This document shows positions 2 to 37,648 of a DNA stretch of 64,000 nucleotides, in pieces. The stretch covers positions 10,779-74,778 of the IMG/VR virus record IMGVR_UViG_3300029874_000006; one strand, written 5' to 3'. This DNA is from a virus. Taxonomy: Duplodnaviria > Heunggongvirae > Uroviricota > Caudoviricetes. Below the pieces are notes generated by a model. It did no database searches. It worked only from the letters and a program-made list of their open reading frames with translations, and had not been told where the DNA came from. Both the position numbers and the translations under genes were made by a program. Every line of letters starts with the position of its first letter. Positions within the stretch are counted from its first letter, which is position 1.

Positions 2-3000
2 AAAGGCTCATTAGATGAGTTTACTCCAGATATTTATGAAGATGGAGAATATACTGGTGTCTTTGAAGATGAAGAGGTCAGAAAAGCAATAAGAATTTTT
101 GGTTCTTGGGATGCTCAGAAGATACAATCTGATAGAGATACTGATGATTATAAAATATTTAAGAAATGGTTTACTCTAAAGAACTTTGACAACTTTACTA
201 GAATGTTGCTAGGTAAAGCTATTATTATTAAACCTGGAACTGAAAATACATTTAGTAATGAAGATAATTACTCCTTTGCTTCCAAAAATGATGCGGTAAT
301 AACAAGCTGGAGAACTAATGAAGATGTTGTACTAGAATAGGAAATTGGAGCATTAGCACAATCCTTAATTAATTCTACACCATATTATTAGTATAGAAAT
401 GATGCAGAAACAGGCTAGTATATAAAGTTCTCTGATTTCTATTAGATTATAACTAAATTAAAGGAGTCTGTTTATAATCCTGTAACTTCTGATATTACAT
501 TTAGGAGATTAGATAATAGATATTAGAATTTATTTAATTCAGGTTTACTTACTCAGCATGAATTAGATCTTATACAAGGTAAATCTTTAAAAGATTTAAT
601 ATGTAGTATTAGAGAAAATCCCGCATTATATAGTAAACTATTATTTACAGCTATAATTAATGATAAAGATACCCTAGTGAGATTAAATTTCACAGATGAA
701 GATTTAAATAAAATGTACTCTTTATATAAGGGTATATTTGCTCCTAAGGATAAGTCTATTCAGGCTATTTAGGCTAAAGAAGATTATAGAGCTTAGAACT
801 ACTATAACTTAATAACTTAGGTAGTTGATTCTATCAATTCTGTAAAATTCCTATAGTATAATATTGAAGATGGAGTAGTAAAAACAAGACTCTTAAAAGA
901 TTATTCTGCTGAAAACGTAAGAAGATCTATAGAGAATAATATAGCATATACTAATTCTTCTCATATTTTATCTTCTTTATTTAAAGAAAGAGAAGTTAAA
1001 TTATATAATATATAGACATTAGCTGATAAGGCTAACAATTTCTCAGGAATTACATGTACTATTCCTGACATTGGTATAATTGTAGAGGTCAATGAATTGG
1101 GAAATTACATTTCTTACAAAGATGAGTCTGGCAAGCTTTTAAGTTCGGAGGAAATAGAAAGGTTAATCGATAATCCGAAAGTAGAATCTCTATGGCAATT
1201 TATTGATGATAACTTATCTATTGGAGTTTCTTATGATACAGATTTGAGAAAAGCTCTTAAAATGTATTTAGGGAATCGTACTATATAGGATTTATTAAAA
1301 TTAACTTCTACAGTACTTCTTAATAAATATATAGCTAATGTAAAGGGGGAAAGAAGTCATGGTAAAGCTGCATTAAATGACTTATTTGATAATATATATA
1401 AAGGCTATCCTAATAAACCTAAATATAATTCGGAATTAATGGAAATGGGATTATATGGCGATGCTATGACTCCTATTCTTGATAATATAGCTAAAGCTAA
1501 AGCACTCACTTCAGGTATTATGTAGTCTGCTTCAGTTAAAGATGCTGATGGTAAAACCCTATCTCAATAGACTCTTAGTCGTTTATTAGGTAACTTAATT
1601 CCTCAGTATAATTGGATTAAATCTTACAATTGGGTAGGTAATGATAAGGTTAATCCATTCTCTAAGATGTCCCTTATGTAGCCTGGTGTATTTAGAGGTA
1701 TATATACTACAAGAGAGGTTAAATCTCCTTATGGAAATAAACCTCAAACATAGTTTACGGTATCTGAGTTTAGTTAGAGTGCCTTTCTATATGATTTCGT
1801 TGATGGTTTTACTACTAAAAAGGATGTTCGAGGAGATGTAGTTATTGGTAATGGAAAAGTAGGATTACTACCATCTGTAAACTCTGATAAAAATACTATT
1901 AACAGAATGTGTGTAGATTTGATGTAGAAAGTTGATTCTAAGCATCCGGAACTTAATGGTAAACAATTTATAGACCTTGATTCTAAAGAATTACAAACAT
2001 TAACTAGTGAACAACTTGGACACTATTTCAAAGCAGTTAATTAGAATATACAAAAAGATTTTGATAAGTTATTTAATTGGATAAACGGTAAGTATCATTT
2101 AGCTATATATAGTTTAGAAGACATTAATAGTCGTTATAGTAATCCTGCTGATTAGTTATATCAATGGGTAAAAGAGTACAATGACACCCACAATAATGTT
2201 ATATAGTTAATTGATTAGACTCACTATTCTATTGATAAAAAAACTAAGAGACTTAAATCCAATATGCTTTTAAAAGGATTAGAGACTAGATTTTCTGACC
2301 CTAGTAAGCTAGCTAAATTTATGCAGTGGAAGGAGACAGAAGTTTTAAAATCCTTATTAGATGAAAATGTAGAAATTCGTCTTATTGACGGTACCAACTC
2401 TTCTGCTAAGACCTATTTAAAAGACAATTATAAAGATTGGATTCATAATGGTAAAATGGTATTTGCTAAGGTTAACGGTAAGGATATATTAACTAAATAG
2501 GACTTAATTAATTTAGGACTAGATATTAATGATCCACATTCTTGGAATATAGAATTACATCCTATGCTTAGTAAATATAATGCGTTAGACTATTTCTTTA
2601 CTTCTCAATATATGTATGCAGGAGTAGGATGTCATACTAATCATCCTTCTAAGGCAGATTATAATGTCCCTATTATTTATAAGCATCCAAAATTAGGTTT
2701 ATCTACATTCTTATAGAATAATCCTCAAGCTGCAAACTATCTCATGGATTTTGATGACTTCTTTAATGAAAAAAGAGATGCATTTATTGAAGCCCAAACT
2801 CATGTAGAAAAATCTATCCCATTCTCTGATGATGAAGGCTATGTTTACTATGACACTAATCCAGAATGGACAAAAGCTAAAGAAAATTATTTAATATAGA
2901 ATTAGAATAATCCAGAATTTTAGGATTTTGTAAAGAAAGCATGGAATGAAGCTAAACTTATAGCTAAGGAATAGAATAAAATTTTATTAAATTCTAGTTC

Positions 3001-6000
3001 TATTGTATTAAAGATGTTCCCACAGGACTTTAGTAAAGTATTAACCATGTCCTAGGAAGAAGCAGTAGCACGTGGTATGGATCCAGATTGGAAAAATACA
3101 ATTGATACTGCTTTAAATGGTTTAATAGTACCTAAAATAGAATTCAAATCAGGTGAATATTTTGACAAAGCATTTAGCTCTTATTTAACTAAAGAAATGG
3201 ATAAACTTCTTCAAAATGAAACTGAAGATGAAGCATCTCGTTTTGCAGCATAGCATAAGAGAAATGTATCTTATACAGCAGCCATGCATGAGTTTCAATT
3301 AAATCAAATAGATGGTGTGCCTTCTGTCTATAATATGGCAATTATGTCAGATTTGAAGTCTGATGTGTATACAGTATAGGCAGATGTGGATAAAGCTACT
3401 AATTTTGATGGTGCTACCTTTGTAAATCCATTTATAGTTATTTGGGAGAACAACTCCCTTAATGGAGATAAAGCAGGTATAAATAAAAAGCAATTTGTAC
3501 ACTTTTATGATAGAGCCACTGGTACAGGAGGTATTATTAAAACTGCAGGATTTGGTTTAACTAATGACAAAATAAGACAGTTTGACTTCTACCGTAATAT
3601 GATGTATAATATGACCGGTAAGAAATGGAAAAATGCTGATGGTTCTCAATATATTATGCGTGATGGAGGTATTCTTAAAGACTTTGAAGACAACGATATT
3701 GACTATGGTGATTTCTACTATAGAAAAGGGGCTAAATTTTATAAGAGACGTATTTAGTCCTATGATGGAAATAACACTTATTCTATATTAGAGCAAGAAG
3801 TTGATGAAAATGGAGAAGCAAAGGGTAATGAGAATACTATTCAAGTATAGGTAAATTCTAACTATGATGTGTGGCAAATGTTTGGAGGTATGAATTCTGT
3901 AGACTTCTTAGATGGAACTCTTCAAGGTTCTGAAAAGTCTATAGAAATGACTGCACATGCTGCCAATATTTATGGAACTAAAAAAGAGGGTGTTATCAGA
4001 GCGCAGACAGCAGATGACATTATCTAGCCTATGAAGCATTCTGATATACATTATATGCCTACTATAGGTGCTGTTAAACACGGTGCTGCAAACATAAATC
4101 CAGTCTCTTCTTTCTTTAGTAGAAATGGTCTAAGTTTTATGTAGGTAGAAGTGAGATAGGCTGGTATTTAGCTTGATAAGGAACATCAAGCTGATAATGA
4201 AGACTTGTCTCTTATGACTTAGGTTATTTCAGCTGCTTGTTCTATGGGATACACTAAGGGAGAGGCTACTAATCTATATAATGCTTTATATAGTCTATCT
4301 AAATAGGCTACTAAAGCATTTAGAGACGAAATGGGAGACCTATTAAATGGATTCTCTGATAGCTTTAATGCTGCGGTAACAGAAACTATTATGAAGTCTT
4401 TGGTTAATGCTTCAGCTACAGACGGTGATATGCTATAGTTAGTAGCAAAGAATATTATAAAGAAAATAAATGCTGAAAAATAGTTTTCTATCAATAAAAC
4501 TAACTACGCTGACATTGATAAAGAAATTCCTTATAGTGATGCTGCTGTTTCTGCTAAGGTAGTTAGTTCTTTAACCGCTGCATTAACTAAAGCTGGAATT
4601 AAAACTAAAATGCCTGGTCTTTTAGCAGTATTAAATCCAGCTGAAGGTATTATAAAAATGTATAAAGTGCCGGCCAAAGACAAAGATGGCAATATTCTAT
4701 TAAATGAAGATGGTTCTACTGTATATAAATATGTAACTATGGATGCCATAGAAAAAGAGTATGATACAGAGAATGCTTTTGAAATAATGGAATAGTTACA
4801 AGCAGAAACAGAGCCACTTAGTTATAATACTGATGAAACTGGATTAATAACTAGTATGCCTGATGTCAAAATAGGACGTAAATACTTAGTTACTTTCTCA
4901 GATGGGGTCAACAAATCTACTAAGGTTGTAAATGTGACATTACCTCATAGAGTGGAGTCTGATACTAGTACTGTATTTTATAATAATGTTCCATATCAAG
5001 AATAGACTATGGGATATAGAAAGCTTATAGACTATTTAAATGGAGTAGTTAATGAGGAAACTGGAGTTACTAACCAAATTACAGAAGTTAAGGAGTTTTT
5101 AATAGGAGGTCAGGACTTAGATAGTTATGATGTAAAATTTTAGGATTCTTTAGGTAATAGATGGCAAATGTCTGATTTAGATATTGTACAAGATTATTTT
5201 GAAGCAAGAGAATCTAAAGACCCCAGAAGAAAAGTATTAGAAATATTATCTAAGTATGATAAAGACTAGGAATTAAAAGCTGCTATAATTAAGGAATTTA
5301 ATGAGTCTAATAATTCAAATAAAGTTAAGATTGTCAATGATTTAAATGATAATTTTAATGGAATTTTCTTAACTGAAACTCCTATGTATAAAGAGTTCTT
5401 TTAGAAGTATGCATTAAAATTCTTAAATAGAGAAATGCAACGACAGTTGGCCGCTTTAAATCCTGAAAATACAGAGCCTTTAAATGTATTAATTAATAAT
5501 AAAGTAGTTACTGTATAGCCTTCTACTATTGATATAACTAGTTATGGAACAGTAATACCTAAGACAGCTGCTTCCTCTTTTGGTCTTAATTAGTATGACT
5601 AGGTTAGTGATATTGTTAACAATCCTGATTTCTTCTTAGATAGATTAGCTAAGAGACTTAATACTAAAGTTTAGGATTATTATAAGGATGGATAGTTAGT
5701 ATATAATTACCACTTGGAGCTAAAAAGAAATGATGGTAATCATGTTTATATAAGAAGAGGGATTGATAATTCTGACTTCGCCAATGAAATTTAGTGGTTT
5801 AGGTATGTTGATTCTGATGGACATGTATTTAGAGTAAACAGTGATGGAAATATTATGCATCCAATGTATAGTGAGAATGATAAAATATATACTGACTATG
5901 ATGGAAATGAAATAATAGTTACTGAAGCTAAAGATACTTGGAAAGATTCTAAAGGCAATGAAGTAAAGAATCCTGATATAAAGAAAATTCGAGGCATCAC

Positions 6001-9000
6001 CATTGATTAGAAGACTGGAGAAGAAATCCATTTAGATTCTCCATTTACCTTTTACTTAGATAACCTTAATTATAACTTTGTAAATTTAAATGCAAATTGC
6101 TCAGAAGCTGAACTATTAAATTTATTAGATGCAGCCAGAAGTAGCAAATCTAAAAAGGCTAATAATTTTGTAAAGAGACTTGCTAAAATAGGTAATTATG
6201 ATAAATAGGTGGACTATTTAGATAAACTTACTAAGTATGAAGATTTAATAAAAGGAGATACTAAAAATCCAGCATATTTAGCCTTACAAAAGGAATCTAG
6301 ATAGATATGGACTTCTTTTATGAAATATCTTGAAAATGTAGCAGCACGTATCCCTGCTTAGTCTTAGTAGTCTTTCATGGCTCAAAGAGTAGCTATGTTT
6401 GAGAATACAGATACAAATAATGCTTATGTAAGTAAATTCTAGTTCTTCTTACAGGGAAGTGACTTGGATGTTGATGCGGCATCTATACAAACATTTGATA
6501 TAAATAGCAACGGTATTTATGAAACTTATTCTCCGTATGCTAATCTGGATTCACCAGCACTTCTTAAAGTTTCTGAAAAATACTTACCGTTCCCAACTGG
6601 AGATAGGATAAAAGTTGAAGAAATTCATGATCCAACTATAACTACTATGCACTAGTTAATAGCTAAATAGCATTATGATGGTAAAAGATTATTTGGATTA
6701 GCTAATAAACTTAATTAGTAGGATGCTTTATTCTTAATAAACTATACTAGAAATAAGGATGTAATCGTAGAGGTAAATACTAACAGTGAATAGAATATAA
6801 AAGATTTAGCTGATATTCTTGAGTCTATTAATTCAGAGGATTGGTATTCTTACGAAGATGATATATCTAATACTAGAGCCTTAACAACTTTATTATTTCC
6901 AGATAATGAAATGGTATTGGATGTAGATTTATATGATAAAATAGAAAATGGTATAATTGAGGCTATAGATAAACATAATACTTATTTAAAGAATAATTCT
7001 AAAGCTAAGAACGATAGAATATTAAAGAATTTTGCTGTAACTTCACTATTAAATATTATTAAAAATCCAGTTAATCTTAGAGAGGCTTAGTCTTCTGTAG
7101 ATGTTATGACATCAACTGCTAAGAACTTAACTAAGGCTTCTCCTAAAAATGCAGTACAAAAAACCTTTACTCCAGGTAATGTATTTAATAAAATCTAGAG
7201 TATCAATGAGAATATGGTTGGTAAAGATGGTATTGCTATCTGTGCGACAGGTCTTAAATCTTTCTTTGCATTAACTCATATGTATAATACAGTATTAAAT
7301 GATGAAAACACTAGTAATTAGGAAAAAGAAGCTTTAATGTGTAAGGTAACAATTGGAGGTAAAACATATAGAGGACTCGCTAACGTAAATGCTAATTAGG
7401 AGTTAATAGAAAGTTTAGCAGATGCCGAGAATGGTAATTTTACTACTTTACAGAATTACTTATTAGCTCAAGAATGGGAATCTGATGCTGCTAATGAAGC
7501 TTCTGCTTTTCTGTCTCTTTCAACTGATAATGCTAAGGAGTTAGCTTTAGCTAAATTAAATGCAGGTACTCAGACTTTGGGTATGTATTTATATGGGTTA
7601 TCTCTTGGAGTTCCAGTAGACACTTTGTTTAAAATAATGACTTCTCCATTTGCTTTTAGATTAGTAGAATTAGCAAAAGGTGATACATTTAGTGGTAATA
7701 GTGGTTGTGGAACTATAATTGGTGCTCTAGACTACTTACATAAAGACCCACTAGAATAGCTTTCTAGATTTAATACATTTGATTTATCTACATATAACGA
7801 AGGTAAACCAAAAGATTAGAAAATATTAGGTCCAGCTGATTTTGCTTGGTAGTTATTGTAGAATAGTATAGCAGATGATTATAATGAAAAATTACCACTT
7901 CTTAGATAGTTAGCTTATAAAGGTAATGCTATTTAGTTAATTGAAGATTTAAGGTCTAAAGTTAATTAGATTAGTAGTGTTATCTAGACAAAAGATGAAT
8001 TTAATCTCTATTCAACCTTATATAATCAAGCACTAGACTTTATGGAATAGTATATTGCTGATGTCTAGCTAGAATTAGATAGTGGAAGTTACGATACTGT
8101 ATACGGAAAATCCATAATAGCTACAGACTTAGAAACTCTTGCTCTTGGTGCTGATGAATATAAAGAAATAGGTAAAATTCTTAGACTTAATCAAGAAGTA
8201 AATACTAATGCTTTAGATTTACAAAACTAGGTAGCTAATATTGAAGAAGTTATAACTAGAAGACTCAGACAATTAGCTAGAGTTGAAAATAGGGGAAGCT
8301 ACTATAGTCATGGTGCCACAAAAGATGAGTTAAAAAATCCTGATAAATATAAGATTGATTTAGAAAAGTTTTTATATGATGAAGTATACTAGTAGGAAAA
8401 AATAGCGTAGTATGATAGAATTAAACAATCTTATAATGTTTTACGTGTTCTTACTACAGATCCTTAGTATAAAGGTTATATGGAAACCTTATATATGGCT
8501 CATCAAGGTCTGTTAAATAAGTAGTTAAAGTATAGATTTACAGTAGGTAAAATTGCAGATTTTATTTAGAAAAATAAAGTTACTGGTAATTTATAGTAGT
8601 AGGTACTTAAAAATGGTAACAATTATGTTGACTATAAACTAAGACAAAATTGGATGCGAGATAGTAAAATACAGATTACTATTCCAGGCAGTACCGATAA
8701 AATGAAAACTTATGCGTTTATAGGAACCCCAAATAGTTATAGTTAGTTATACTTTGATAAAACTATACAACTGGGCACTGATATGGGAGATGCTAATTTT
8801 AAATTATGGATGGAGCAAACTCTTATTCCTAGACTTAAAGCGGACCCAACATTAAAAGATAATATATTTATATAGCATTTAAGTCCTATAGTTAACTCAA
8901 GAACTAATTTGGGTATGACTGCGGTTTATTATGGATTAAATGGAATAAACATGTTGCCTTAGTCTGACGCTGAAAGAGAAATGTTTGATATACATAAAGA

Positions 9001-9784
9001 CGCTTTTAATAAATTAGCAACCTATGACTTGATTAGGGACGCTAAAGGTCATACTTTTGCCATAAAAGACTTATTTTATCTATATTCTTTAATATGTAAT
9101 AACGGTAAATTTGGTCCTACTTCTCTACATAAAATATTTGAGGATTATCTAGATTCAGGTCTAGCCTAGAGTTATAAACACTTTATAGCAGAAAAAGATA
9201 GAGACTTAGATTTCTACCAGGATTTAGTAAAGACATGTACAGATGAATGGCTTGCACCTATGAGTTCTCCTTATGTTGGAGGTTCTAAAGTACTCAAATA
9301 TAAGGATTAGAACAATGAATAGATTCTACTTTATAAAAAGAAGGAAAAGAAGTCAAAAGGTGGATATGACTATGATGTCGAGTAGGATATGGATGACATC
9401 TTTATGAATGATATGGGATTTGATCCAGAAGGTGGAAAAGACCCTATGGCAGAAATCAACAACTATGTTAAATAGGAATCTAGTGCCCTAGCTAAAAGAG
9501 ACTATAGTTTCTTCTCAAATCCTGAAGTTAAATATAATACATCAGGTTTTCAAGTATTATCAACTAAATCAGAACTAATTAATTAGCATCCTATAACCTA
9601 CGAAGTTAGAGATGGTAAACCTGTATTAGTAAATATAGGGGGTGATGGGGAGATTGCAAAAAAGTTTATGAAATTAATGAAAGATCGTAAGGGAATATTA
9701 CCTACTAAGTAGATTCTTGGAACAGATGGATTTACTGCAGTAATTAATGAAGAATAGATTGAATCAGAATTAAATAGTATAATA
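2..9784 (+). CDS. Giant virion/late protein, 5'-partial (>=3261 aa), translated with in-frame TAG read as sense (probably Gln)
   Basis: Frame 2 is open from nt 2 to TAA at 9782-9784. Every interruption seen on manual codon-by-codon reading is TAG (~85 of them); no TAA/TGA in frame. All frame-2 ORF-track fragments (1097, 2264, 3386, 4610, 6464, 7577, 8981) lie in this frame and end at TAG. Codon usage is coherent throughout. Confidence 0.7.
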
Positions 9785-9884
9785 AATTGTGGATAATTGT
9801 TTAATTAAAGATTTAGAATATCGGACTAAGCTATCTTAGTCTGGTATTCCTGAATCTATATTTTATCCATTTTGCAATGGATTT

Positions 9885-10844
9885 ATGAATAAGTATGGGA
9901 GATTACCTAATCTAGATGAAATTCCAAATGTTGATTCTTCTCAACATATAATTAATAAACTGCATCTAGATGGTAATAGCTCAACATCTATAGATAATAT
10001 CATGTCTTCTACTAATACATCAAGTATTGAAGAAGCTAATGTTAGTTTAAATGATACCTATAAAGATAAAGATATAAATATAATTCCTTTATATAAAGAA
10101 GCTTTAGTTGACATAAAAGATAGACCTTCCGAATATAAAACAATAGAATAGGAAAAACATAAAGTAGATAGAAATCCTAATATGCAGGGAGTATTTAATT
10201 AGTTATTTAATAAGTTAGAGAAATAGTATGGAGTACAATTACATACTATTTCAGATAAAGAACTGGCTAGTGATGAATGGTAGGGAATACCTGAAATTTA
10301 GACAGCTAATGCTTTTATTTATAATGGAGATATATATATAAATACAGACCATGCAAAAGCCGATGCTCCTATACATGAAATGACTCATATGTTATTAGGT
10401 TCTATTAGATTTAAAAATCCTGATCTTTATTATGGAATTGTACAACAAGCCTAGAATTTTCCAACATTTAATTAGTTTATAGAACAAAACCCAAATAGAG
10501 CTATAAATGATAATATGGAAGAATTATTTGTTACAGAAATGTCTAAATATCTAGCAGGGGAATCTAGCATTATTGAATAGTTAGATGAAACCGTTATTAA
10601 TGAGTTACATTATAACATGAAGAGACTATTAGATACTGCACTTATGGGTTAGTATAGTGTAAAAAGTATTCCTGATTCTAAGTTATATAGAATGTCTTTA
10701 GCTGATTTAGTAGAAACTGTAAATTCCCAGATGTTAGAAACAAGTTTTTATGGAAGCCTAGATGACGCTGCTTTGCATAGAGTATTAGCTAATACTAAGT
10801 CAGATTTAATGAAAAAAGGTGATTTAAGAGAAGATTGTGTATGA
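9885..10844 (+). CDS. HExxH (HEMTH) zincin-like putative metallopeptidase, 319 aa, TAG-recoded
   Basis: ATG at 9885 (frame 3), ~10 internal TAGs, ends at TGA 10842-10844. Motif ...DAPIHEMTHMLLG... Stop overlaps the next gene's ATG (ATGA coupling). Confidence 0.55.
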
Positions 10845-13800
10845 AATGTATTTATAGTTATAAAGGAAAACAGTTTTAGTCCATACAATAGTTAGATGAT
10901 TTTCTATTAGAAAAACAAATATATGAAAGTAAATATGGAGATTTAGTATTCTCTATGACTGAAAAATAGTTGTCTGCTTAGAATAGAATTGATAGCATCA
11001 ATAAAGAAGCAGAGGAACTAAATAAAAAATATGCTGAAGCTAAGAAAAACGCGTCATTTATAGACTCAGAAGAAATATTAAAAATGACTCGTCCTTATGT
11101 AGGTGTAAGTGAGTTTTTAATGGATTAGAGAAATGATGAAGGAGAACTTTGGGTGCCTACATTTACTACCGAGTATTGGGCTAAACAATACTTAAATTGG
11201 AGTTAGGGAATTTACTCAAAAGACGAAAAAGATGCATTTTTTGATGGTGATGATTCTAAAGTATAGCCTGTAGAATTAGGAAATCAGGGGGATTGGCGTA
11301 AAGCGGATGGCTCTCTAAAGGATGATTTTGGAACTATTGAATAGAATAACTTCCGTAAAATAATGGAAGATAAGTGGAAACACTAGGCTAAGTATGGTGA
11401 TGATATTCATGCCATTATGCAGAGTTATTTTGCTAGAATAGGCGAAGATTCTGATGGAAATCCTAAGTATCGATATGAATTATGGGAAGGAGATCAAGGA
11501 GCTATGCATTTAGCTAAGAGTATTAAATATATGCGTAATAAAGGAATTATTACTGATGAAATGACTGATGCTAAAATTAATAGTATATTAGAAATAGCTA
11601 GAAATTTAAGAGATTAGTTATAGAGTTAGTATGGCAAAAAATGTATATTTTATCCTGAAATTACTGTTAGTGCCAAATTGAATCATGAATATGAAGGTAG
11701 AGACGATTTAAGTGTATTAGGTCGTCTAGACTTATTAGTTATTGATGAAGATGGTATTCCTCATATTATGGATTACAAAACTTCTCCTAAAAATTACGAT
11801 GACTTTGTCGAAGCTAAGAAACTTACATTTACTTACTAGTTAAGTACCTATGAAAGAATGCTTAGGAGACATGGTTTTAATACTACAGCCACAAGCTTAA
11901 ATATTATACCACTTAAACTAAATAACTTTAGAAAAGAGAATGGTAAATGGACTTACGATGATGTAGTACCTGGTGGTAATTTACTAGAATCAATAACTGA
12001 TAGAGCCAATAAAGATTACATAGCTAATAATCTTGATGAATACATAGAAGCTCCATTATTATTAGATGGGGATTCTAGTAAGATTACAGAGAATGTAACT
12101 GATTTAATGAAAACTTGTTTTCCTGAACATGGTAATGTAGCCACTGATGAATAGATAAAAAAGATGATTGATGGCTAGGGAGGTTTCCATGAAAATAAGG
12201 AAGCGGGTTCTTTGGAGTTTAAGCCCAAGGGATGGACTAAGACTATATCGGTAAAGTAGAAGGAAGGGGCAGAAGCTGAATTATTTAATAAGGTTAAGAA
12301 ATTCTTTACAGGCTAGAGAGAACGTAGTTTAAAGAGAACTTAGGAAATTAAGAGAGCACTTAAACAAGCACAAGCTGAAGACACTAGATAGATTTAGTTA
12401 CCTAATTCTATGAGTGATTGGACTAAAACAAGGCTATCTAAATATTGTAGTAAATCTTGGGAAGTAATGGAAGGTCATGCACAAGATGTTGCTGAGCAAT
12501 TTGGTATGATATTTTTATATAACAAAGCTAATGATTTAGTAGAGGTAGTTAAAATTAGTTCTGCAGATTTATCTTTTTAGCATTCTTGGGGAAAAGGTAG
12601 ATAGAATATTATTGGGGCAAAGGAAGCTGATTTGGGAGAAAATTCCAAGTCAGACAGTTTGATTATTAAAGCTACTAATGGTAACATAGAGCTTATGGAA
12701 GCCATGGCAGTTTTAAATAATATTCAGTTTAATAAGTCTATTTAGTTAGGAAACATAAGTGTTCTTAATCCGGTATTTGGTTAGGGAGCTGAAACTAATT
12801 CTAATAAAGAGCTGCTTTATAACTGGAGAAAACTTAGAAAAACCTTTAACATGGATGGGGAAGATTAGTTTAAATAGGATGGTACTATTAAATTATTGTC
12901 TTTAGCTGAAAGAGCCTATCTGGAGTATGCTGATATAATGGATAGAGTTAATGACAGGTGGCAAGCTCAAGAATTTAGTAAGTTTAAACCTGCTATGACT
13001 GAGTTACAAAGTTCCTTACAACCTAATAATGTAGAAGAAAGTCTTGAAGCTCTTAATTAGCTTAAAACCAAATTGGAGAAAGACTTTGGAATGAATAAGG
13101 ATATTTTAACCAGGGGAGAAAATAAGGGTAAAAGTATATATTCTGAAGTATAGAATTATGACTAGCAATATACTAAGTAGATGTACCAAATAACTCTTAG
13201 AGCCATTGCTGAACTTAGCGGTTTTGATATTAGACAGGAAACAAAAGCACACAGTTCTTTCTTAGTCTTAGAAAATGGTATGTCTGGAAATATGATAGAT
13301 AACCCAGGTAACTTTGGTAATAGACTTCTTAATTAGGTAACTTAGTTAGCTCTTGATGGTTATTAGAATACTCGAGATATGTCAATTAAAAGACTTAATG
13401 CACTATCTGAAAAAGTACGAGAGCTAAAAAGAGGTGAAAACTATGGGGTTATTAGTGAGTATGGATTTGGTAATTAGGCTTCTCTCTATAATGGTATGAC
13501 TTATTATGATACTGATGGTGACTTTAAATTTAAAAATCCTTGGAAAGATAATTCCCTACCTGAACATAAAAAAGAGTTTTTAAAATGGGCATTAACCGAA
13601 ATAGCTAAAAATAAACATCCTGATTGGACTCCCGAAGTTATTAAAGATAAAATAGAAGCAAATGATCCAGATTTCTTTTAGGTTCCTTTAATAAGGGCAG
13701 ATGCCGCATCTAAAATTAATGCAGACGGATGGTTAGGTTGGTTAAAAAGTAAAATGAGACCTTTAATTAGCAAAGATAATGGAGCAACTTTTAAAGAGAG

Positions 13801-15673
13801 AATTCAAAATACTTTAAAAGATATACAATCTAAATATTTATCTGATGAAATAGATTAGTAGCAAAGTATTGACGGTGAAGTATTTAAAGTAATAAATACT
13901 ATGGATTAGGGAAGTGGTCCTGGCAGATTAGACTTAATTAAACATCTACAAGGAAAATACGGATCTAATTGTTTTGAAACGGATATAGAAAAAATATTAG
14001 GTGCTCATATGATGGCATATGCTACTCAACAAGCCATGGAAGATAGAATGCCTTTAATTAAAGCAGCTTATATATCCTTAGCAGTAATGGGTAATAACTA
14101 GGGGGTAGACTATTCTTCTGATGAGAAATATATTAAAGAATATGTTCAAAATAAAATAAATAAATTAGCAATAGATAATCCTTAGTTAAGACATTTAAGG
14201 AGTGCCACTGGAATGTTACAAAAAAGTGCTTCTTGGATGGCATTAGCTTTTTCACCTTTACAAATGTCTTATTAGAGTCTGGAAGGTGTTTGGAAGGCTG
14301 CTAAATTAGTTATAACTAAACCAGATGGTAAAGAAACATTTAGTTTTTCTAATATGCGTAAGGCTATGGGTATTGTATATAAAGAATTGTTTAATTATAG
14401 TGAAACAAATTCTGTAATAGAGGGTTGTAACGCTCTTTATGGTATAAACGATATGGATGCTGCCTCATTTGCCCAAAACAATAGTACTAATAAGCATGGT
14501 CTGTTTAATTTCTTTGACAGAATTGCATATTATTGGTCTTCTCGTCCCGATTTCTATAATAGAATGTCAATATTCACAGCATAGATGCTTGAAGATGGTA
14601 GTTATGAAGCTCATTCAGTAGATGCCAATGGTAACTTAATATACAATATTAAAAAGGATAAGAGATTTGAAGCATTATTTAATAAACCAAAGGGTTCTCC
14701 TGAATATAATAAAGCAAAAGCCTTATTCTTAGCCACTGCTTAGTAGTTAGTGAGGGAAAACGCTAGAAATGCCGATGGTTCATTATACACCATAGATTTA
14801 GATAATCCAAATTTACCTAAAGCCTACTCTAATAAAGAGTCTGAATCTATGAAAGCTATTGGGGATACCATGTATGGATATTACGATAGTTCTAAGAAAT
14901 CATTATGGCAATCTACATTCTTAGGAGGCCTTATGATGCAAATGCAAACATATTGGTCTGGTAAAAAGAATTAGTATCTTGCTCCTGGAGGTATTAAAGC
15001 ACAGGGTAAATGGGTCTAGATGGTAAGTCCTAATGGTAAAAAGTGCTATTATTCTAAAAATGAAAATGGAGATATTGATAACTCCTCAATGCCTGTAGAA
15101 GAGGGAGATCCTAGAGCTAGTGAAGTACCCTTTATGCAATGGAAGGGTAGATTTGAAGAAGGCGCTTTTATAACCTTATATGATGTACTTAAAAGAACTA
15201 TAGGACATAAGGGAAATCTTAAAGCTGCTTGGAAAGAGAAGTTAGATGGAACTGACGAAGACTTATAGAAACTTTATAAGTAGAACATGAAGTTGATAGT
15301 TAGTGACTTACTCGGTATGTTACTTATTGGTTCTTTACTAGGCGGATTATTAGAAGATTTAGCTGATGAAGAAATTAAAAAGGCTAAAAAATCTGCACAG
15401 ATTGGAGATGCTATGGCTGCAACAGCCTTAAGTCTAATAGCTAAGACTGTAAGAAATTCAGCTCTAGATTTTAACATGATAGACTCTTTGTTTGGCTTTG
15501 TAGGGGATTGGAATCCATTCTCTCTTAGTTATGCAGCTAATTAGCTAAGTAATGGTTGGAGTCTTATAACTGGAGATAAAAATTGGGAATAGACTCTATG
15601 CAGTGCCTTCTCTGCAGCACGCTAGATGAGACCAATACTTAATTGCATTAATTAGTCTTTACAAGAGGATTAA
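10841..15673 (+). CDS. Giant virion/late protein (1610 aa) with RecB/Cas4-like PD-(D/E)xK motif, TAG-recoded
   Basis: Frame 2 opens after TAA at 10826-10828; ATG at 10841 overlaps the upstream TGA. Frame open to TAA at 15671-15673 with dozens of TAGs. ORF-track fragments 11417, 11858, 13496, 14354, 14750, 15020, 15287 are all in this frame. Motif LGRLDLLVIDEDGIPHIMDYKTSPK near 11700-11790. Confidence 0.6.
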
Positions 15674-15683
15674 ATACACTAAT

Positions 15684-15869
15684 ATGAAACCTAGAGACAA
15701 TTTATCTACTAAATATCCTAGATGTCATTATAATAAATTAGGTAAAACTAAAATGACATTCGATACTACAGATTTAGCTGAGAAATATCTCAAAAAGATG
15801 CATTTAGATACTTATACTATTTATCAATGTACTTATTGTAATAAGTATCATATATCACACATAAATTAA
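15684..15869 (+). CDS. Small Cys-rich (zinc-ribbon-like) protein, 61 aa
   Basis: ORF directly after the giant gene; Cys at ~aa 14 and a C-x2-C pair at ~aa 49-52; followed by terminator hairpins. Confidence 0.35.
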   Translation: MKPRDNLSTKYPRCHYNKLGKTKMTFDTTDLAEKYLKKMHLDTYTIYQCTYCNKYHISHIN

Positions 15870-15912
15870 AAAAATAGGGGCAAGCTAGCATTTGCTAACT
15901 CACCCCCTATAA
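15866..15912 (-). terminator. Intrinsic terminator for the minus-strand block (hairpin, then U-run on minus strand)
   Basis: ATAGGGGcaagctagcatttgctaactcaCCCCCTAT with A7 immediately 5' on the + strand (U7 on minus). Convergent gene ends on both sides. Confidence 0.5.
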
Positions 15913-15918
15913 AGAAAA

Positions 15919-15975
15919 AAGGGCAAGCCAATGGATTTTACTCCACTGACCTGCCCTTAATTATTATTTATTATA
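15919..15975 (+). terminator. Putative intrinsic terminator for the plus-strand late block
   Basis: AAGGGCA ... TGCCCTT stem followed by a T-rich tract (ttaattattatttattat). The loop is long (~26 nt), so confidence is moderate. Confidence 0.4.
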
Positions 15976-16170
15976 CCATATTACATGTGTATATTCCATA
16001 TTTTTGTTGTTAACCTCATCTAATGTAAAGGAAGAAGGGGATAGCCATTTACCTGTCCATTCTCATTAGAATACTGTCCTTCACCGTTGGCATCAATAAA
16101 CCATCCGTTTTCAACGTTCTCTCTAAATTCATCTCTAGTAAAGAGATCTCCTAAATCTAATTTCTTCATA

Positions 16171-16485
16171 TTAATTATTTTGTAATTGTCTTATTCTCTC
16201 TTGACATATATGAATAATCTTTTCATAGTCTTCTATTCTAGCTTCACTCTCAGTCTTTCCTTGTAATACTTTAGTTCTATATATACGTTTAACTATATCA
16301 GCATCCCAAGGATTTAATTTCCAATCTTGCCATACAGACCAAGGCTGAATTATAGACTTAGAATAGTTACTTTCTCCAATATTTTTATCTCTTACATTAG
16401 AATCATCTGGAAGTATTCCAATCTTTTGCAAATACTTAAAAAGATCAAGATTATTATTTATATATTCAGGAGTTATTAATTGCAT
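16171..16485 (-). CDS. Hypothetical protein (104 aa)
   Basis: First ORF of the minus-strand block; adjacent to the next gene; TAA stop. Confidence 0.4.
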   Translation of the reverse strand: MQLITPEYINNNLDLFKYLQKIGILPDDSNVRDKNIGESNYSKSIIQPWSVWQDWKLNPWDADIVKRIYRTKVLQGKTESEARIEDYEKIIHICQERIRQLQNN

Positions 16486-17054
16486 TATTTGATATGTGCT
16501 TTATAATGAATTTTATCTAATAATTCTGCCAGATTTACAGGTGTGAAATTATTATTATCTACACCCACATCATACTGATTATCGAAATAATTCCATGGTT
16601 TATCTGGTGTACTATGCACATGACCATGTAATTGAATTATAGGACGATTAGTAGCTGGATCTGGTAGAGAACCAAAGGGAAAGTGGTTAAGAATTATAGT
16701 TTTCTTTTCCACCCTAATTACTTCTTCCCAAGATACTGTTTCGCATCTAAAAGGAGTCTCAAAACTTTTCATAATATTCAAATTATCATGATTTCCCATA
16801 ATAAAGCTTATATGTCCAGTTAGACGTCTTATAAAATCAGGGATGAGTGATTTATCACCTAAAGCGAAATCTCCCAAGTGATAGACTATATCACCCTTAG
16901 AAACTACTTTATTCCAATTTTCTATTATAGTTTCATTCATTTCCTCAACAGAAGAGAATGGACGATTACAATACTTAATTATATTAGCATGATTAAAATG
17001 GGTATCTGAAGTTACCCAAATATGTTTTGCTTCTTCTTTTGTATATTTAACCAT
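16485..17054 (-). CDS. Calcineurin-like metallophosphoesterase
   Basis: Motifs SDTHFNH, GDF, GNHD, GHVH in canonical order. Confidence 0.7.
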   Translation of the reverse strand: MVKYTKEEAKHIWVTSDTHFNHANIIKYCNRPFSSVEEMNETIIENWNKVVSKGDIVYHLGDFALGDKSLIPDFIRRLTGHISFIMGNHDNLNIMKSFETPFRCETVSWEEVIRVEKKTIILNHFPFGSLPDPATNRPIIQLHGHVHSTPDKPWNYFDNQYDVGVDNNNFTPVNLAELLDKIHYKAHIK

Positions 17055-17065
17055 TTATAATATAT

Positions 17066-17779
17066 TTATTTCTTGAAATAAAAGCAAATATCAGGTCTGC
17101 CAAAAACTAAGCTTGTATCTATACTACAAAGGTATTTAGTTTTACCGCCCTGTGTATTGACAACATCATAGTTGATTCCACGACCTACTCCTATTATATT
17201 TGTTATTTGTCTTTTATTCCAAATGTTTTCATAATACCCAACACCTGGATAAAAATCTATATAGATAGTTTTTTCACCCTCTCTTAATAAATATTTACCA
17301 ATACATTGTGGAACCCTTGATTCTATTAGAGCTTTAATTAGGGGTCTCAAATATAATTTATTAAATCTTTTCTGATTCTCGTTATATTTATTAATTATTT
17401 GATAATCACTCCCTTTAACAGGCTTTTTATAATTAAGAATACCATTAGTTACATAAAACCCACCACGTTGAGAATCTATATCTTCTTTATCTTGAATAAA
17501 GCTATAAAATTCTTCTTTAGGATTAAATTTACTCAGATTATTACATCTAGATAGGAACTTAGAAAATACTTTATTAACTGGATATCCTACATGGCATTTT
17601 AAAAATTTTTCAATATCACCATTAAGATAGGTATAGTCATCATCGTTCCAATTATGCTTACAATACCCCCATTCTTTTAAATTTCTAGGAATAGCTGTAA
17701 AATCCTTAAACTTATATCTGGGAAATTTCTTATGAGTTCTTTTACTTTTAGTACTACTTCTTTTTAAACCGAATGTCAT
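17066..17779 (-). CDS. Hypothetical protein (237 aa)
   Basis: Long ORF, tightly spaced in the operon. Confidence 0.45.
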   Translation of the reverse strand: MTFGLKRSSTKSKRTHKKFPRYKFKDFTAIPRNLKEWGYCKHNWNDDDYTYLNGDIEKFLKCHVGYPVNKVFSKFLSRCNNLSKFNPKEEFYSFIQDKEDIDSQRGGFYVTNGILNYKKPVKGSDYQIINKYNENQKRFNKLYLRPLIKALIESRVPQCIGKYLLREGEKTIYIDFYPGVGYYENIWNKRQITNIIGVGRGINYDVVNTQGGKTKYLCSIDTSLVFGRPDICFYFKK

Positions 17780-17830
17780 AATAGTTTTATATTAATGTTC
17801 TCTGCTTTTCCTACTTTCTTATTAGAGATT

Positions 17831-18181
17831 TTAGTCAAATTCTTTTAAAACAAAGCACTTAATTTCACCTTCAATTTCGTAGAATACAACATCGAGTTCA
17901 TTCAGCCAGTTAAGCATCAAATGTGAATCGCCTTCACTAATTTCCTTGTATTCTTTTAACCATCCTTCTAATTCTCGAATTACATACCCATCCATTTGAT
18001 CAGGACCTCCAAAATGATAGTAACCATCAGGATTAATGAATGTAAAGCCTCCTTCAATTTCTACTAATTCATTTTTAATCTTAGTAACTAATTCACGTTC
18101 CAAAATAAACTTATTAGAGAAGTACATAATTAATATTGATTTAGCTAAATCTAAATTATTCACAAATCCATACTCGTCCAT
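17831..18181 (-). CDS. Hypothetical protein (116 aa)
   Basis: ORF in operon context. Confidence 0.4.
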   Translation of the reverse strand: MDEYGFVNNLDLAKSILIMYFSNKFILERELVTKIKNELVEIEGGFTFINPDGYYHFGGPDQMDGYVIRELEGWLKEYKEISEGDSHLMLNWLNELDVVFYEIEGEIKCFVLKEFD

Positions 18182-18315
18182 ACTTAATATAGTTATTAAT
18201 TGATTAAAATTTTAATTAAATTCTTTTGATTATTATTCAATCTCATTGGTTTTTATTTATATAAATAAATTTCTCAATGAATTCTGCAGTACTGGCTTCA
18301 TAAAACTCTGAAGAA

Positions 18316-18689
18316 TTATTTTGATTCATATTCAGTTACGGTTACTTCCTTTGGAAATACTTCTGTTAAATCTGCATTTGCATCTACTTGGTCTTCAAAA
18401 TCCCAATTCCAAGTATAATACCAATCAAAAGAATAATATTTATCTTCAATCTTTATAATAGCAGTATAATTAATATAAGACTTTTCTAAGTCAATATAAT
18501 TAGTACGATATTGTGTATCTATTATTTCTATATGTGAATATAGGTTTTCTAAATAATCAAAAGCTTCCTCGGGGTATGAGATTCTCTAAATTTATCTAAT
18601 TCTTCTACCATATACTGAGGCATATAGTCTTCTATTTCATCAAATTCATCACTAATTATATAGTAATATTCGTCCAGTCTTAATTTCAT
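18316..18689 (-). pseudogene. ~123-aa gene interrupted by a 1-nt frameshift in a C4/G4 homopolymer (sequencing error or pseudogene)
   Basis: ATG at 18687-18689 overlaps the upstream gene's TGA (ATGA). Frame breaks at + strand GGGG 18571-18574. One extra C would give one continuous ORF: MKLRLDEYYY...HTPEEAFDYLENLY...TEYESK. Confidence 0.4.
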
Positions 18690-19201
18690 AATTCTAAAAA
18701 GTCTCTAACGTCAATATAATCTATACCAAAATTCTCAGCGCACTTCTTATCAGAATCTGAAAAATCCCCTGGTTTACCAGAAGCATCTCCTATCATAATA
18801 CATTCATCTTTAGACTCTACTTTGTATTGATAGTATAATTGTTCTAGCATTCCAGTATTAGGTTTTCGATAAGTATCATTCTTATCCATAGAACAACAAT
18901 ACAAGCTATCACTATATGAAAAATTATTAAGTTTATTAATAAAATAGTCATAACATATACCTTCTACAGCCCATATCTTATAATTAAAAATACGTTTATC
19001 TGTAAGAGTCTTTAAACCTCCTTGATTACTTACTATAAAAAACATATTAAGATTAGGCATCTTTTCTATTATTTTATCTAATACAGGAAGTTGTATTCTA
19101 AAATCAGTAATGTCTTCAGGAAATGTTTTACCTGAAATAGTCTTAATTAAAGTACTGTCCAAATCAATGAACAGTACTTTTTTAGTTTCAAAATCAATCA
19201 T
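18686..19201 (-). CDS. HAD-superfamily polynucleotide 3'-phosphatase (PNKP-like)
   Basis: DxDxT motif FIDLDSTLI; C-terminal IGDASGKPGDFSDSDKKCAENFGI resembles the PNKP phosphatase signature (GDAAGR...KDFS..D...N.G). Confidence 0.6.
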   Translation of the reverse strand: MIDFETKKVLFIDLDSTLIKTISGKTFPEDITDFRIQLPVLDKIIEKMPNLNMFFIVSNQGGLKTLTDKRIFNYKIWAVEGICYDYFINKLNNFSYSDSLYCCSMDKNDTYRKPNTGMLEQLYYQYKVESKDECIMIGDASGKPGDFSDSDKKCAENFGIDYIDVRDFLEL

Positions 19202-19488
19202 TCACAATATTGCTTAATTAATACTTCATCAGTTATAGCATCCTTTTGATAACCAGTATTAAGTTCTTTCATAGCCAAGCTATAACCCTCCCAATTATCA
19301 ACTCCTTCAGCCTCTAAAGCAGCTAATTTTTCGGAATCTTTTATTAATTGTAAAAGAGTATCTACATCTATAGATATGGCATTATTTATAACTTCAATAA
19401 CACTGTCACCCCAAGGAATAGACCTTTCTTCACCGCCTATAGGAATTTTACTTCCATCCCAACAAGGACAAGGCATATCGGAATCCAT
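19198..19488 (-). CDS. Hypothetical protein (96 aa)
   Basis: ORF overlapping neighbours by 4 nt. Confidence 0.4.
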   Translation of the reverse strand: MDSDMPCPCWDGSKIPIGGEERSIPWGDSVIEVINNAISIDVDTLLQLIKDSEKLAALEAEGVDNWEGYSLAMKELNTGYQKDAITDEVLIKQYCE

Positions 19489-19565
19489 TTCTAAGGCATC
19501 ATATACTGAACAGAAGTCATCGCTATCATCTACGAGATATTAAAAAGTCTCTTTAACTCTATACA

Positions 19566-19799
19566 TTATACCAAGATACTCTTAAGATTATCTACAAATT
19601 TATTTGCCTGAGCTTTGATATTCTCGATATCCTTAATTTCAGACTGAATCTTCTTTACTTCCTCTTCTTTTTCTGAAATCTTATCATTCATTTTGGAGAT
19701 TAAAGTAACTGCTTTATCGTGAGCAGTCTGAAAAGAAGACTGAATACTATTCAACTTAGAGCTAAAAGAAAGACCAAATAAATCCTGTAATGAGTTCAT
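19566..19799 (-). CDS. Hypothetical coiled-coil protein (77 aa)
   Basis: ORF; K/E-rich heptad-like sequence. Confidence 0.35.
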   Translation of the reverse strand: MNSLQDLFGLSFSSKLNSIQSSFQTAHDKAVTLISKMNDKISEKEEEVKKIQSEIKDIENIKAQANKFVDNLKSILV

Positions 19800-19859
19800 A
19801 TAACAATATACTTTAAAAAATAAATAATTGATCTTATTAATACTAATCTAAATATTTAA

Positions 19860-20432
19860 TTATTCATAAGTTACTTTTATTGTATCCAGTACATAATTAT
19901 GGTAATACTCCTCTAATTTAGGTATAATTTCATTTAAAAGAGTTGACTTATGATTAAATGCCCAGTTATAATTAGGAATTTCTTCTATAGGCAACCATTT
20001 AATTCCATCAACTTCATCTTTCTCCCCGCCTTCTTGAAGTTTACCAATAGGTTTTCTAAGACCTAGGATACATAAATGTCTTAAAGTAACATTACCTTTA
20101 TTACACTTTTTAGGGTCAGTCTCCACGTTAATTAATGCAAAAGCTTCTGAAGGAATACTAACCCCACATTCTTCAGCAACTTCTCTAGAACATGCTTCAG
20201 TGGCAGATTCGCCACCATCTAAATATCCACATGGCATATTCCATTTACCTTGGTCATCAGGTGTTCCTCTACCTCTTTTATTAATTAATACATACCATTT
20301 ACCATCTTTTTCTTTAGCTAACACGACACAACTAACTGCACAATATCTACCACTCCAAATGGTTTCTCCTTTATGAGGACCATCTGGAATAGTATAAGAA
20401 TAAGATTTTTCTATTTTACCTATTTGATTCAT
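19860..20432 (-). CDS. NUDIX hydrolase
   Basis: Nudix box GGESATEACSREVAEECGV (GX5EX7REUXEEXGU). Confidence 0.8.
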   Translation of the reverse strand: MNQIGKIEKSYSYTIPDGPHKGETIWSGRYCAVSCVVLAKEKDGKWYVLINKRGRGTPDDQGKWNMPCGYLDGGESATEACSREVAEECGVSIPSEAFALINVETDPKKCNKGNVTLRHLCILGLRKPIGKLQEGGEKDEVDGIKWLPIEEIPNYNWAFNHKSTLLNEIIPKLEEYYHNYVLDTIKVTYE

Positions 20433-20611
20433 TTACTTAAAAATAATGAAATTTTTTCGAGACATTTATCACATATATATCTACGCCTATTGAGTGTCCA
20501 CCTCTCATCTATAGAGTTTACTGCACTGCAGTAATCTAAGATTCCTACTTGCTTATCTAAATCTATAGTAGAGCCACAGAAATCACAAGTATAAAGAATT
20601 CTTTTACCCAT
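20429..20611 (-). CDS. Zinc-ribbon protein (60 aa)
   Basis: CDFCG ... CDKC pairs. Confidence 0.4.
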   Translation of the reverse strand: MGKRILYTCDFCGSTIDLDKQVGILDYCSAVNSIDERWTLNRRRYICDKCLEKISLFLSK

Positions 20612-20620
20612 TTAATTCCT

Positions 20621-20890
20621 TTAATAAGTTTCTATATAATAGTTCATGTTTCCCCAACCTCCACTACAGTTAGCATTTCGTATATGTTTACTTCGAATTT
20701 CTTCAGGCACATTCATAATAACATATTTACCTGAATAAAACCTTTCACCATTAATTACGAAATTGCCCCATTCATCGTTTTCTGTAGCGTGATCTATAAT
20801 ATCACCAACAGTATCTAAAGGGGAATGGATTATCTCATAATCAGAAGTACAATCCCCATATATATTTGATATTGATACTAGTTCTATCAT
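20621..20890 (-). CDS. Hypothetical protein (89 aa)
   Basis: ORF in operon. Confidence 0.4.
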   Translation of the reverse strand: MIELVSISNIYGDCTSDYEIIHSPLDTVGDIIDHATENDEWGNFVINGERFYSGKYVIMNVPEEIRSKHIRNANCSGGWGNMNYYIETY

Positions 20891-21396
20891 TTATAATATT
20901 TATATAAAGAAGTTACATTAGGGTCTTTACCACCATCATAAATACACACAGTCTGAATGATTTTACAACCTTGACGAATTTCTTTGAGGGCTTCCTCTAT
21001 TTTATTTCTAGTAGTGCCTGAATAAAAAGAATCATCAAATAAAATAAAATCATCAACGTCTATTTGATTAACTAATATTTGTGCTTTAGTATCTTCTTGT
21101 CGCAATCCCCCATTAACTAGTATTACCTGTTCAAAAGTCTTACGTAATTCATAAGGCATATAATTAAATACAGCTCTTCCGAAGGCACCTGTGAGAATTA
21201 GACCATTCCAACCAAATGTAGGAATGCCTCTATTTACCCACAGATGCTCATCATAACACCATTGAACCAACCTATCCCAGGTAGCATCAATAATACTCTT
21301 GTGTCCACGAATCATATCATCCAAGTGATTAAAGAAATCTTCATCACTAGAATGATTTTTAAGAATCTCTTCTACTTTTTTATCTAAAAAGTTCAT
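20887..21396 (-). CDS. Type-I phosphoribosyltransferase-domain protein (APRT-like)
   Basis: PRPP-binding signature VDDFILFDDSFYSGTT. Confidence 0.55.
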   Translation of the reverse strand: MNFLDKKVEEILKNHSSDEDFFNHLDDMIRGHKSIIDATWDRLVQWCYDEHLWVNRGIPTFGWNGLILTGAFGRAVFNYMPYELRKTFEQVILVNGGLRQEDTKAQILVNQIDVDDFILFDDSFYSGTTRNKIEEALKEIRQGCKIIQTVCIYDGGKDPNVTSLYKYYK

Positions 21397-22692: not shown

Positions 22693-22693
22693 A

Positions 22694-37641: not shown

Positions 37642-37648
37642 TCAAATA

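Follow-up and report, generated by a model that had tools for sequence, protein, structure and literature searches.

Block-wise reading of TAG as glutamine in the late genes of crAss-like phages has been described (PMC7886860; bioRxiv 10.1101/2021.08.26.457843), and code 15 has been validated in these phages by metaproteomics (PMC9523058). Zeta-group crAss-like phages have genomes of 145-192 kb with many introns, inteins, homing endonucleases and tRNA arrays (PMC7886860; PMC12386605). The DNA considered here is a stretch of 64,000 nucleotides (nt) from a virus record (IMG/VR IMGVR_UViG_3300029874_000006, positions 10,779 to 74,778), called the window in what follows, position 1 being its first letter. 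Its left end holds three plus-strand genes, A, B and C, that are open when TAG is taken as a sense codon. The genome is read here as that of a dual-code phage, with an early arm in the standard code and a late arm in which UAG specifies glutamine and which would be opened by a phage-encoded tRNA with the anticodon CUA, tRNA(CUA), acting as a translational lock. The probability of this reading is put at about 0.9.

Phenomenon and mechanism are already published for crAss-like phages. Since a lock operated by a phage suppressor tRNA is thus on record, the value of the present locus lies in correct annotation and in leads rather than in a new principle. It offers a worked example of how a genome with two codes is organised, in a phage that is very common in the gut. 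What is added is the extent of the recoded block, a polymerase motif in gene A and corrected coordinates for that gene; the leads are a transfer-messenger RNA (tmRNA), a sigma factor, the location of the suppressor gene, a head protein gene poor in TAG, ribozyme matches and tRNAs with odd loops.

UAG codons in the late genes

The three genes are the following.

2..9796, plus strand: gene A, the 3' 3264 codons of a protein of ~3460 amino acids (aa), predicted to be a virion-packaged two-barrel RNA polymerase
9885..10844, plus strand: gene B, 319 aa, 9 TAG, TGA stop
10841..15673, plus strand: gene C, 1610 aa, 52 TAG, TAA stop; last gene of the late arm

With TAG as sense, the map of open reading frames (ORFs) of the window has the plus strand open from 2 to 9796 (3264 codons, 98 TAG). 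The gene B frame follows at 9786-10844, with its ATG at 9885, and that of gene C at 10841-15673, an ATGA overlap joining the start of gene C to the end of gene B. In all, 159 of 5193 codons are TAG and none is TAA or TGA. (In the other two frames of the same DNA, TAA and TGA together make up 5% and 15% of codons, so that frames of this length are not open by chance.) The genes are closed by TAA, TGA and TAA. This is the pattern by which code 15 is recognized, some genes being dense in in-frame UAG while UAA and UGA still serve as stops, and it bears out the proposal of a first-pass annotation of this DNA that only UAG is reassigned. The count of 22 TAG among the first 840 codons of gene A, given there, is reproduced, and a back-to-back run that it had quoted, GCT TAG TCT TAG TAG TCT, lies at 6356-6373. 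The stop of gene A had been placed at 9782-9784 and needs correction: the TAA is at 9794-9796, 12 nt away. UAG recoding of the late genes of the window is real.

If the TAG codons were genuine stops, the plus-strand genes would be pseudogenes or fragments and the long frames relics; what speaks for this is that under the standard code no plus-strand ORF of at least 150 codons exists in the region. Relics do not account for 5193 codons free of TAA and TGA, in the same DNA that has them at 5-15% off-frame. They also do not account for TAG being kept, or exchanged with CAA or CAG, across relatives at 41-99% identity, for full-length proteins conserved in hundreds of contigs, for intact ORFs in standard-code relatives, or for TAG codons inside invariant catalytic motifs. 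In the homologues, genes do not end where the TAG codons stand. Codon statistics and homologue alignments in effect refute degeneration of these genes.

The amino acid for which UAG stands can be read from alignments. Codon-by-codon comparison took in four loci, all likewise recoded, that carry homologues of genes A to C and of an upstream gene at 41-99% protein identity. Opposite TAG stand TAG 560 times, CAA 359 times and CAG 79 times; glutamine is 7.3-fold enriched over background, followed by Lys and Glu at only 1.2-1.4-fold, with Tyr at 0.27-fold. Lys and Glu are the usual substitution neighbours of Gln. Standard-code relatives give an independent frame of reference. Homologues of gene C in the standard code are found in MT837483.1 and MT835470.1, and the latter has the whole syntenic block as intact ORFs (1556, 614, 2970, 2281 plus 991, 809 and 1529 aa). 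The residue that MT835470.1 most often has at the 108 TAG sites aligned is Gln (14.8% against a background of 3.1%, a 4.8-fold enrichment). The back-to-back run at 6356-6373, translated A-Q-S-Q-Q-S within RIPAQSQQSF, lies opposite RIPNQGQSS of the polymerase of Cellulophaga phage phi14:2, which is in the standard code, and two of its three TAGs align to Gln residues there. Codon usage within the window fits the same assignment: in the three late genes 3.06% of codons are TAG and 1.98% are CAA or CAG (5.05% summed, 61% of Gln codons thus being TAG), and the early genes have 3.28% Gln codons and no TAG. The alignments therefore uphold the earlier assignment of UAG to glutamine and indicate that UAG in these genes is read as Gln.

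The alternative that UAG specifies Tyr, Lys, Glu or pyrrolysine could appeal to Lys and Glu being next most frequent opposite TAG and to the label 'tRNA-Pyl' that ARAGORN attaches to every CUA tRNA found (described below). The enrichments just given, in recoded relatives and in a standard-code one, favor Gln over each of the three standard residues; the tRNA(CUA) itself is nearest to a tRNA-Gln(UUG) and has the U1-A72 pair; no genes for pyrrolysine synthesis or for pyrrolysyl-tRNA synthetase are seen in the annotated parts; and the metaproteomic validation in crAss-like phages was of code 15 (PMC9523058). An amino acid other than glutamine is scarcely credible.

Two opposed arms and a suppressor tRNA

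Recoding had at first been described as confined to a block of 15.7 kb. It is not: the arm runs far upstream and takes in tail, ejection and major head genes, and the apparent confinement arises because the edge of the window cuts the late arm, of which the window holds the last three genes. Gene A begins ~197 codons to the left of position 1. The late arm has been read over at least 63 kb on sister contigs (identity to the window is 99.2% for one of them, L001, and 96% for IMG/VR contig 080621), and contig coordinates give it a length of roughly 94 kb. A 176-kb assembly, ENA ERZ28616704 scaffold_110, is also 99.2% identical to the window. The genes upstream of gene A, all in the plus arm, include:

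just left of the window, plus arm: helicase-like protein with Walker A/B motifs, 3079 aa, 111 TAG
upstream, plus arm: protein of 623 aa, 21 TAG
upstream, plus arm: protein of 1565 aa, 63 TAG
upstream, plus arm: proteins of 207 aa (9 TAG) and 531 aa (32 TAG)
upstream, plus arm: transglycosylase, 10 TAG
upstream, plus arm: fibre-like proteins of 2173 aa (51 TAG) and 1426 aa (34 TAG)
upstream, plus arm: fibre-like protein, 1020 aa, 12 TAG
upstream, plus arm: smaller structural genes, including a major-head-protein-like gene with 2 TAG in 473 codons

The count per upstream late gene ranges from 2 to 111, the head-protein-like gene included, and the load in the giant proteins is ~1 TAG per 33 codons. 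The major-head-protein-like gene (L083, 2287-3708; PHROG 11589, E 8.5e-8) carries 2 TAG and the adjoining gene, for 337 aa, carries 1. Standard-code gene calling wrecks the entire virion arm of this phage.

The rest of the window is arranged in the opposite direction.

15674..16484, no strand: convergence zone where the recoded plus arm meets the standard-code minus arm (from ORF maps and GC skew)
16485..62246, minus strand: replication and nucleotide-metabolism arm, standard code
25633..25859, minus strand: group I intron that interrupts PolA (RF00028 of Rfam at 81 bits, E 9e-19)

GC skew turns from +0.21 to -0.22 at the convergence zone. The minus arm encodes PolA, a sigma-70-like factor, RNA ligase, DNA ligase, dUTPase, Thy1, NrdD, an NrdG-like protein, HNH endonucleases, primase, DnaB, an SNF2-type helicase and a Band_7 protein (the last present in 598 contig-index blocks, in keeping with a phage that is very common in the gut). 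In its 36 ORFs of at least 150 aa, in-frame TAG is absent from 9879 codons, so that the standard code previously assigned to this block stands. The stops of these ORFs are 27 TAA, 6 TGA and 3 TAG, each of the three TAGs being backed by TAA or TGA within 4-7 codons. One of the three, the apparent stop of a 649-aa PolA ORF, is accounted for by lying inside the intron; the PolA exons are at 25831-27780 and 25389 to ~25632, and exon 2 carries motif C (HDE). The two genuine TAG stops end the minus-strand ORFs 45426-46943 and 60470-60979, with an in-frame TAA or TGA 4 and 5 codons on. These backup stops imply that the cost of read-through is limited once a suppressor is expressed.

A tRNA with a CUA anticodon, for which a search beyond the window had been suggested, is present in 11 of the 11 sister genomes examined at the region concerned. 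Over the DNA that they share with the window, four of these (contigs 079855, 082639, 075331 and 061496) match it at 98-99.5% identity. The gene is carried by the late strand; on contig 080621 it lies near 149.4 kb, ~48 kb past the window's right end and ~8.5 kb past the second of two tRNA arrays. Read in the direction of the late genes, the strand switch is followed by ORFs of 282 and 132 aa that lack TAG, a hairpin, tRNA(CUA), and then TAG-bearing ORFs. The tRNA is a canonical 73-nt cloverleaf (61 bits against the Rfam tRNA model) with the anticodon loop CU-CUA-AA. Among the phage tRNAs collected it is nearest to tRNA-Gln(UUG), with 55 identical positions, the U1-A72 pair and the same D arm. 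Scans for tRNAs gave no tRNA of any kind in the ~60 kb of the late arm that they covered and no tRNA(CUA) in tRNA array I or in the tmRNA region, and a scan with Rfam models found no ribozyme adjoining the suppressor.

These findings bear on a further reading, in which the host uses code 15 or supplies a UAG decoder of its own and no code switch takes place during infection. In its favor, the window has no tRNA(CUA), and published surveys detect suppressors in only ~40% of TAG-recoded phage genomes (bioRxiv 10.1101/2021.08.26.457843). This reading is nevertheless very unlikely: the replication arm has no in-frame TAG and has three ORFs ending at TAG (one intronic) with TAA or TGA 4-7 codons on, and near-identical genomes encode their own Gln-like tRNA(CUA). 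Bacteroidales and Lachnospira use the standard code, which counts against a host with code 15. Both are candidate hosts of Zeta phages (PMC12386605).

The dual-code arrangement suggests the following course of infection. The minus arm (16.5-62 kb of the window and beyond), which encodes proteins of replication and nucleotide metabolism, the sigma-70-like factor, two tRNA arrays and a tmRNA, would be translatable by host ribosomes from the start of infection, being in the standard code. The plus arm, which encodes the virion (fibres, major head protein, ejection or internal proteins, and giant proteins at its very end), would become translatable only after expression of the phage tRNA(CUA). This tRNA, apparently derived from tRNA-Gln and presumably charged by the host glutaminyl-tRNA synthetase (GlnRS), is encoded close to where the late arm begins, with two standard-code ORFs ahead of it, and would then have to outcompete host release factor 1 (RF1). 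Recoding can thus be thought of as a potential translational lock that ties synthesis of virion proteins to the late phase. The earlier suggestion of late-gene recoding served by a phage suppressor tRNA holds as regards the tRNA(CUA) in sister genomes and the restriction of recoding to the virion arm; its further part, a lifecycle switch, would follow from the proposed course.

Several points weigh against this reading. The window has no tRNA, and the suppressor is found in sister contigs only, rather than in the contig from which the window is taken. We infer the timing, the charging of the tRNA by GlnRS, its competition with RF1, the packaging of giant proteins and the role as a lifecycle switch. 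A few small plus-strand ORFs in the late arm lack TAG; the uneven density (2 in 473 codons in the head gene, none in some ORFs) makes a simple lock on every late gene over-simple. The late arm as read omits ~25 kb (151.6-176.7 kb of contig 080621), the expected site of TerL and portal, and a PDB search gives the major-head-protein-like sequence no relative. Assignment to the Crassvirales, which is likely, not proven, rests on a short motif match (E 1.4e-5; 0.021) together with synteny and genome features, and tblastn with gene A and gene C found no classified Crassvirales record.

Late-arm proteins and accessory elements

The elements on which assignment of genes A and C depends are:

6347..6484, plus strand: predicted beta'-like double-psi beta-barrel catalytic element of gene A, RIPAQSQQSF ... 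GSDLDVDAAS (DxDxD)
3464..3493, plus strand: GDKAGINKKQ, conserved Lys-rich element of gene A (conserved alignment columns)
11381..11896, plus strand: PD-(D/E)XK nuclease domain of gene C, aa 181-352 (PF12705; PHROG 1218 exonuclease)

Full-length homologues of gene A are ~3460 aa long at 99% identity. A core profile search places 1114 clusters (50% identity) in its family at E <=1e-3, nearly all of the best 150 clusters being 2000-5000 aa long, and no cluster carries a functional name. Neither the full sequence nor a 21-sequence profile has a match in PHROGs, Pfam or PDB, and gp66, the polymerase of phi14:2, is reached only by a profile limited to the catalytic element. The protein had been regarded as unrecognised and as lacking a canonical RNA polymerase motif. 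That view no longer holds: GSDLDVDAAS (nt 6455-6484) and RIPAQSQQSF, 26 residues upstream of it, are both invariant and align with the catalytic loop of the phi14:2 enzyme. Invariant columns of the element are R, P, Q, S, G, S and D-x-D-x-D; TAG codons fall within it at 6359-6361, 6365-6367 and 6368-6370. A 177-sequence profile of the region aligns with residues 1314-1370 of gp66 (hhalign probability 80%, E 1.4e-5), placing the DxDxD of gene A opposite D1361, D1363 and D1365, and the top PDB match of a profile of the same kind is 6VR4_A, 'DNA-dependent RNA polymerase' (E 0.021). The giant protein is accordingly predicted, from sequence, to be a crAss-type virion RNA polymerase. The second barrel is more tentative. 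GDKAGINKKQ we take to be like the beta-subunit barrel motif GDKxAGRHGNKG, but hhalign gives the region that holds it no significant match to gp66. An AlphaFold2 model of the 1166-aa polymerase core, made from 10 sequences, has a mean predicted local distance difference test (pLDDT) score of 59.8, falling below 50 in both motif regions. The presence of two double-psi beta-barrels, a statement at the level of fold, is therefore put forward as a possible architecture suggested by conserved motifs.

Gene B, syntenic in L001-L003, has an HEMTH (HExxH) motif at 10374-10388; it has no Pfam match and one weak PHROG match of unknown function. The recognisable domain of gene C is a PD-(D/E)XK nuclease (35.6 bits against PF12705, cut-off 22), in line with the RecB-like nuclease motif noticed earlier; the sequence FFDGDD, noticed with that motif, gives no polymerase signal in Pfam and PHROGs scans. 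A 'PDDEXK_a' nuclease stands in the structural block of crAss-like phages, as in gene C (PMC7886860).

Genes for release factor, GlnRS and YqeY are not found among the window ORFs scanned, nor are release factor or aminoacyl-tRNA synthetase genes found in the annotated parts. One distant recoded relative (L002) has, beside the end of its recoded block, a gene at 27827-28294 for a 155-aa YqeY-domain protein (PF09424). In some GlnRS and GatB proteins, a YqeY-like domain is an appendage that binds tRNA-Gln.

Several early-arm genes are interrupted or have neighbors of interest. The NrdD ORF (42676-44421, minus strand) covers only the first ~414 of 562 profile positions and is followed by an HNH endonuclease ORF (41468-42442) and HNH/AP2-like ORFs (40018-40416 and 40450-40788, minus strand); the region 40018-44421 is probably another interruption by an intron or homing endonuclease, and no exon for the C-terminal glycyl-radical part was located. 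The sigma-70 family factor (28360-29205, minus strand), with Pfam regions 2, 3 and 4, is encoded just downstream of PolA, and the relative L003 has it too. Host RNA polymerase could be steered by this factor to middle or late promoters. Past the window the early arm goes on to an 819-aa P-type cation ATPase (L150, 5486-7945) and an adenylosuccinate synthase (L006, 2882-3946), with a LAGLIDADG ORF beside the synthase gene in some strains, not in L007.

Two tRNA arrays lie in the early arm, beyond the right end of the window. Array I is variable (Ala, Gly, Tyr and, in some cases, Asp, Ile, Thr or Met); array II has Arg, Phe, Trp, Lys, Asn, Glu, Ser, Gln-UUG, Leu and Met together with odd-loop tRNAs. 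Between them lies a tmRNA (L180, 7591-7926, by ARAGORN and by Rfam RF00023 at 59.4 bits; ~120 kb on contig IMGVR_UViG_3300045988_080621, ~19 kb past the right end of the window), with the tag peptide GEVNNTSVSYAIAA; eight sister loci have it. Ribosomes that run through UAG stops under suppression might be rescued by this tmRNA. A literature search joining tmRNA, crAss-like phages and suppressor tRNAs found no paper. It is tempting to combine these elements into a coordinated code-switch toolkit, in which the tRNA(CUA) heads the ~94-kb late arm, the sigma-70-like factor may redirect host RNA polymerase to that arm, tmRNA may rescue read-through ribosomes at host and early UAG stops, and the uneven TAG load (2 in 473 codons in the head gene as against ~1 in 33 in giant injected proteins) may tune dependence on the suppressor. 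Such coordination is speculative and, on balance, unlikely.

The tRNAs with odd anticodon loops recur (L218 4655-4729, L219 1607-1681, L220 477-551, L221 6783-6857 and others), one with a 6-nt loop (CATTAA) being conserved, and related genomes have tRNAs for which ARAGORN gives the anticodon as 'ta', 'gt', 'ga', 'aggt' or 'gacg'. Directly 3' of tRNA-Leu(UAA) in array II is a weak match to an HDV-like ribozyme (L218, 4129-4318; 25.9 bits, gathering score 44), an arrangement reminiscent of the theta ribozymes that adjoin phage tRNAs (PMC10879173). After it comes a tRNA-like element with a 34-nt insert in its anticodon region containing CCTCTAAAG. Both this element and the tRNA with the CATTAA loop were considered as UAG decoders and dropped after the canonical tRNA(CUA) turned up. 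The early arm of one sister genome has a RAGATH-1 hammerhead ribozyme (L227, 6806-6911; RF03152), whose 69.7 bits exceed the gathering score.

Comparison with described phages

On sequence and gene order this is most likely a Zeta-group crAss-like phage of ~187 kb with two long opposed arms. Sister contigs are 176-190 kb long with 31% GC. Zeta traits found here are introns (the PolA group I intron), HNH and LAGLIDADG ORFs, and two tRNA arrays; a replication block with DnaG-type primase, DnaB, SNF2 helicase, PolA, Thy1, dUTPase and ribonucleotide reductase; a giant-protein block with a DxDxD polymerase motif at the end of the structural arm; and a PDDEXK nuclease inside the structural and transcription block. 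The crAss-like affiliation proposed earlier is thus supported by the polymerase motif, the nuclease and the genome traits; TerL and portal would fall within the unread ~25 kb. By megablast the late block has no match in INPHARED, and tblastn with gene C and the polymerase core gave only three unannotated 'Bacteriophage sp.' records.

Code-change modules of the Lak, Jade, Sapphire and Agate phages (bioRxiv 10.1101/2021.08.26.457843) likewise have a suppressor in a standard-code context upstream of recoded genes. They differ from this phage, in whose annotated parts no release factor or aminoacyl-tRNA synthetase gene is found.

The phi14:2 protein gp66 (PDB 6VR4; GenBank KC821624 gp077) is, like the product of gene A, a giant single chain, and its RIPxQxQxS ... 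GSDxDIDxxxV element with D-x-D-x-D aligns to gene A. In both phages one or two genes follow that of the polymerase before the structural arm ends at the strand switch, and its neighbors encode other giant virion proteins: the order is 593, 1797, 2180 (polymerase) and 1421 aa in phi14:2 and 623, 3079, 3456 (polymerase), 319 and 1610 aa in this phage. The gene A product is ~1300 aa longer (3460 as against 2180 aa), no sequence similarity is detected beyond ~60 residues, and the second barrel is unmatched. Moreover, phi14:2 is in the standard code and gene A is recoded.

A described counterpart is ctkor1, a Zeta-group entry of 187,612 bp with polA, 31.36% GC, a CTA suppressor and amber suppression (PMC12386605), a profile that is the same as that of this phage. 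The tmRNA, the sigma-70-like factor, the P-type ATPase and the placing of the suppressor behind two standard-code ORFs are this phage's, and are unmentioned in the Zeta and code-15 papers cited here. With the code-15 crAss-like and Zeta phages ('Echekviridae', PMC12386605) it shares block-wise recoding of the late arm, a replication arm in the standard code and the tRNA(CUA); with the Zeta phages it also shares introns and homing endonucleases in core genes, tRNA arrays, and early TAG stops backed by TAA or TGA. Nothing fundamental sets it apart from them.

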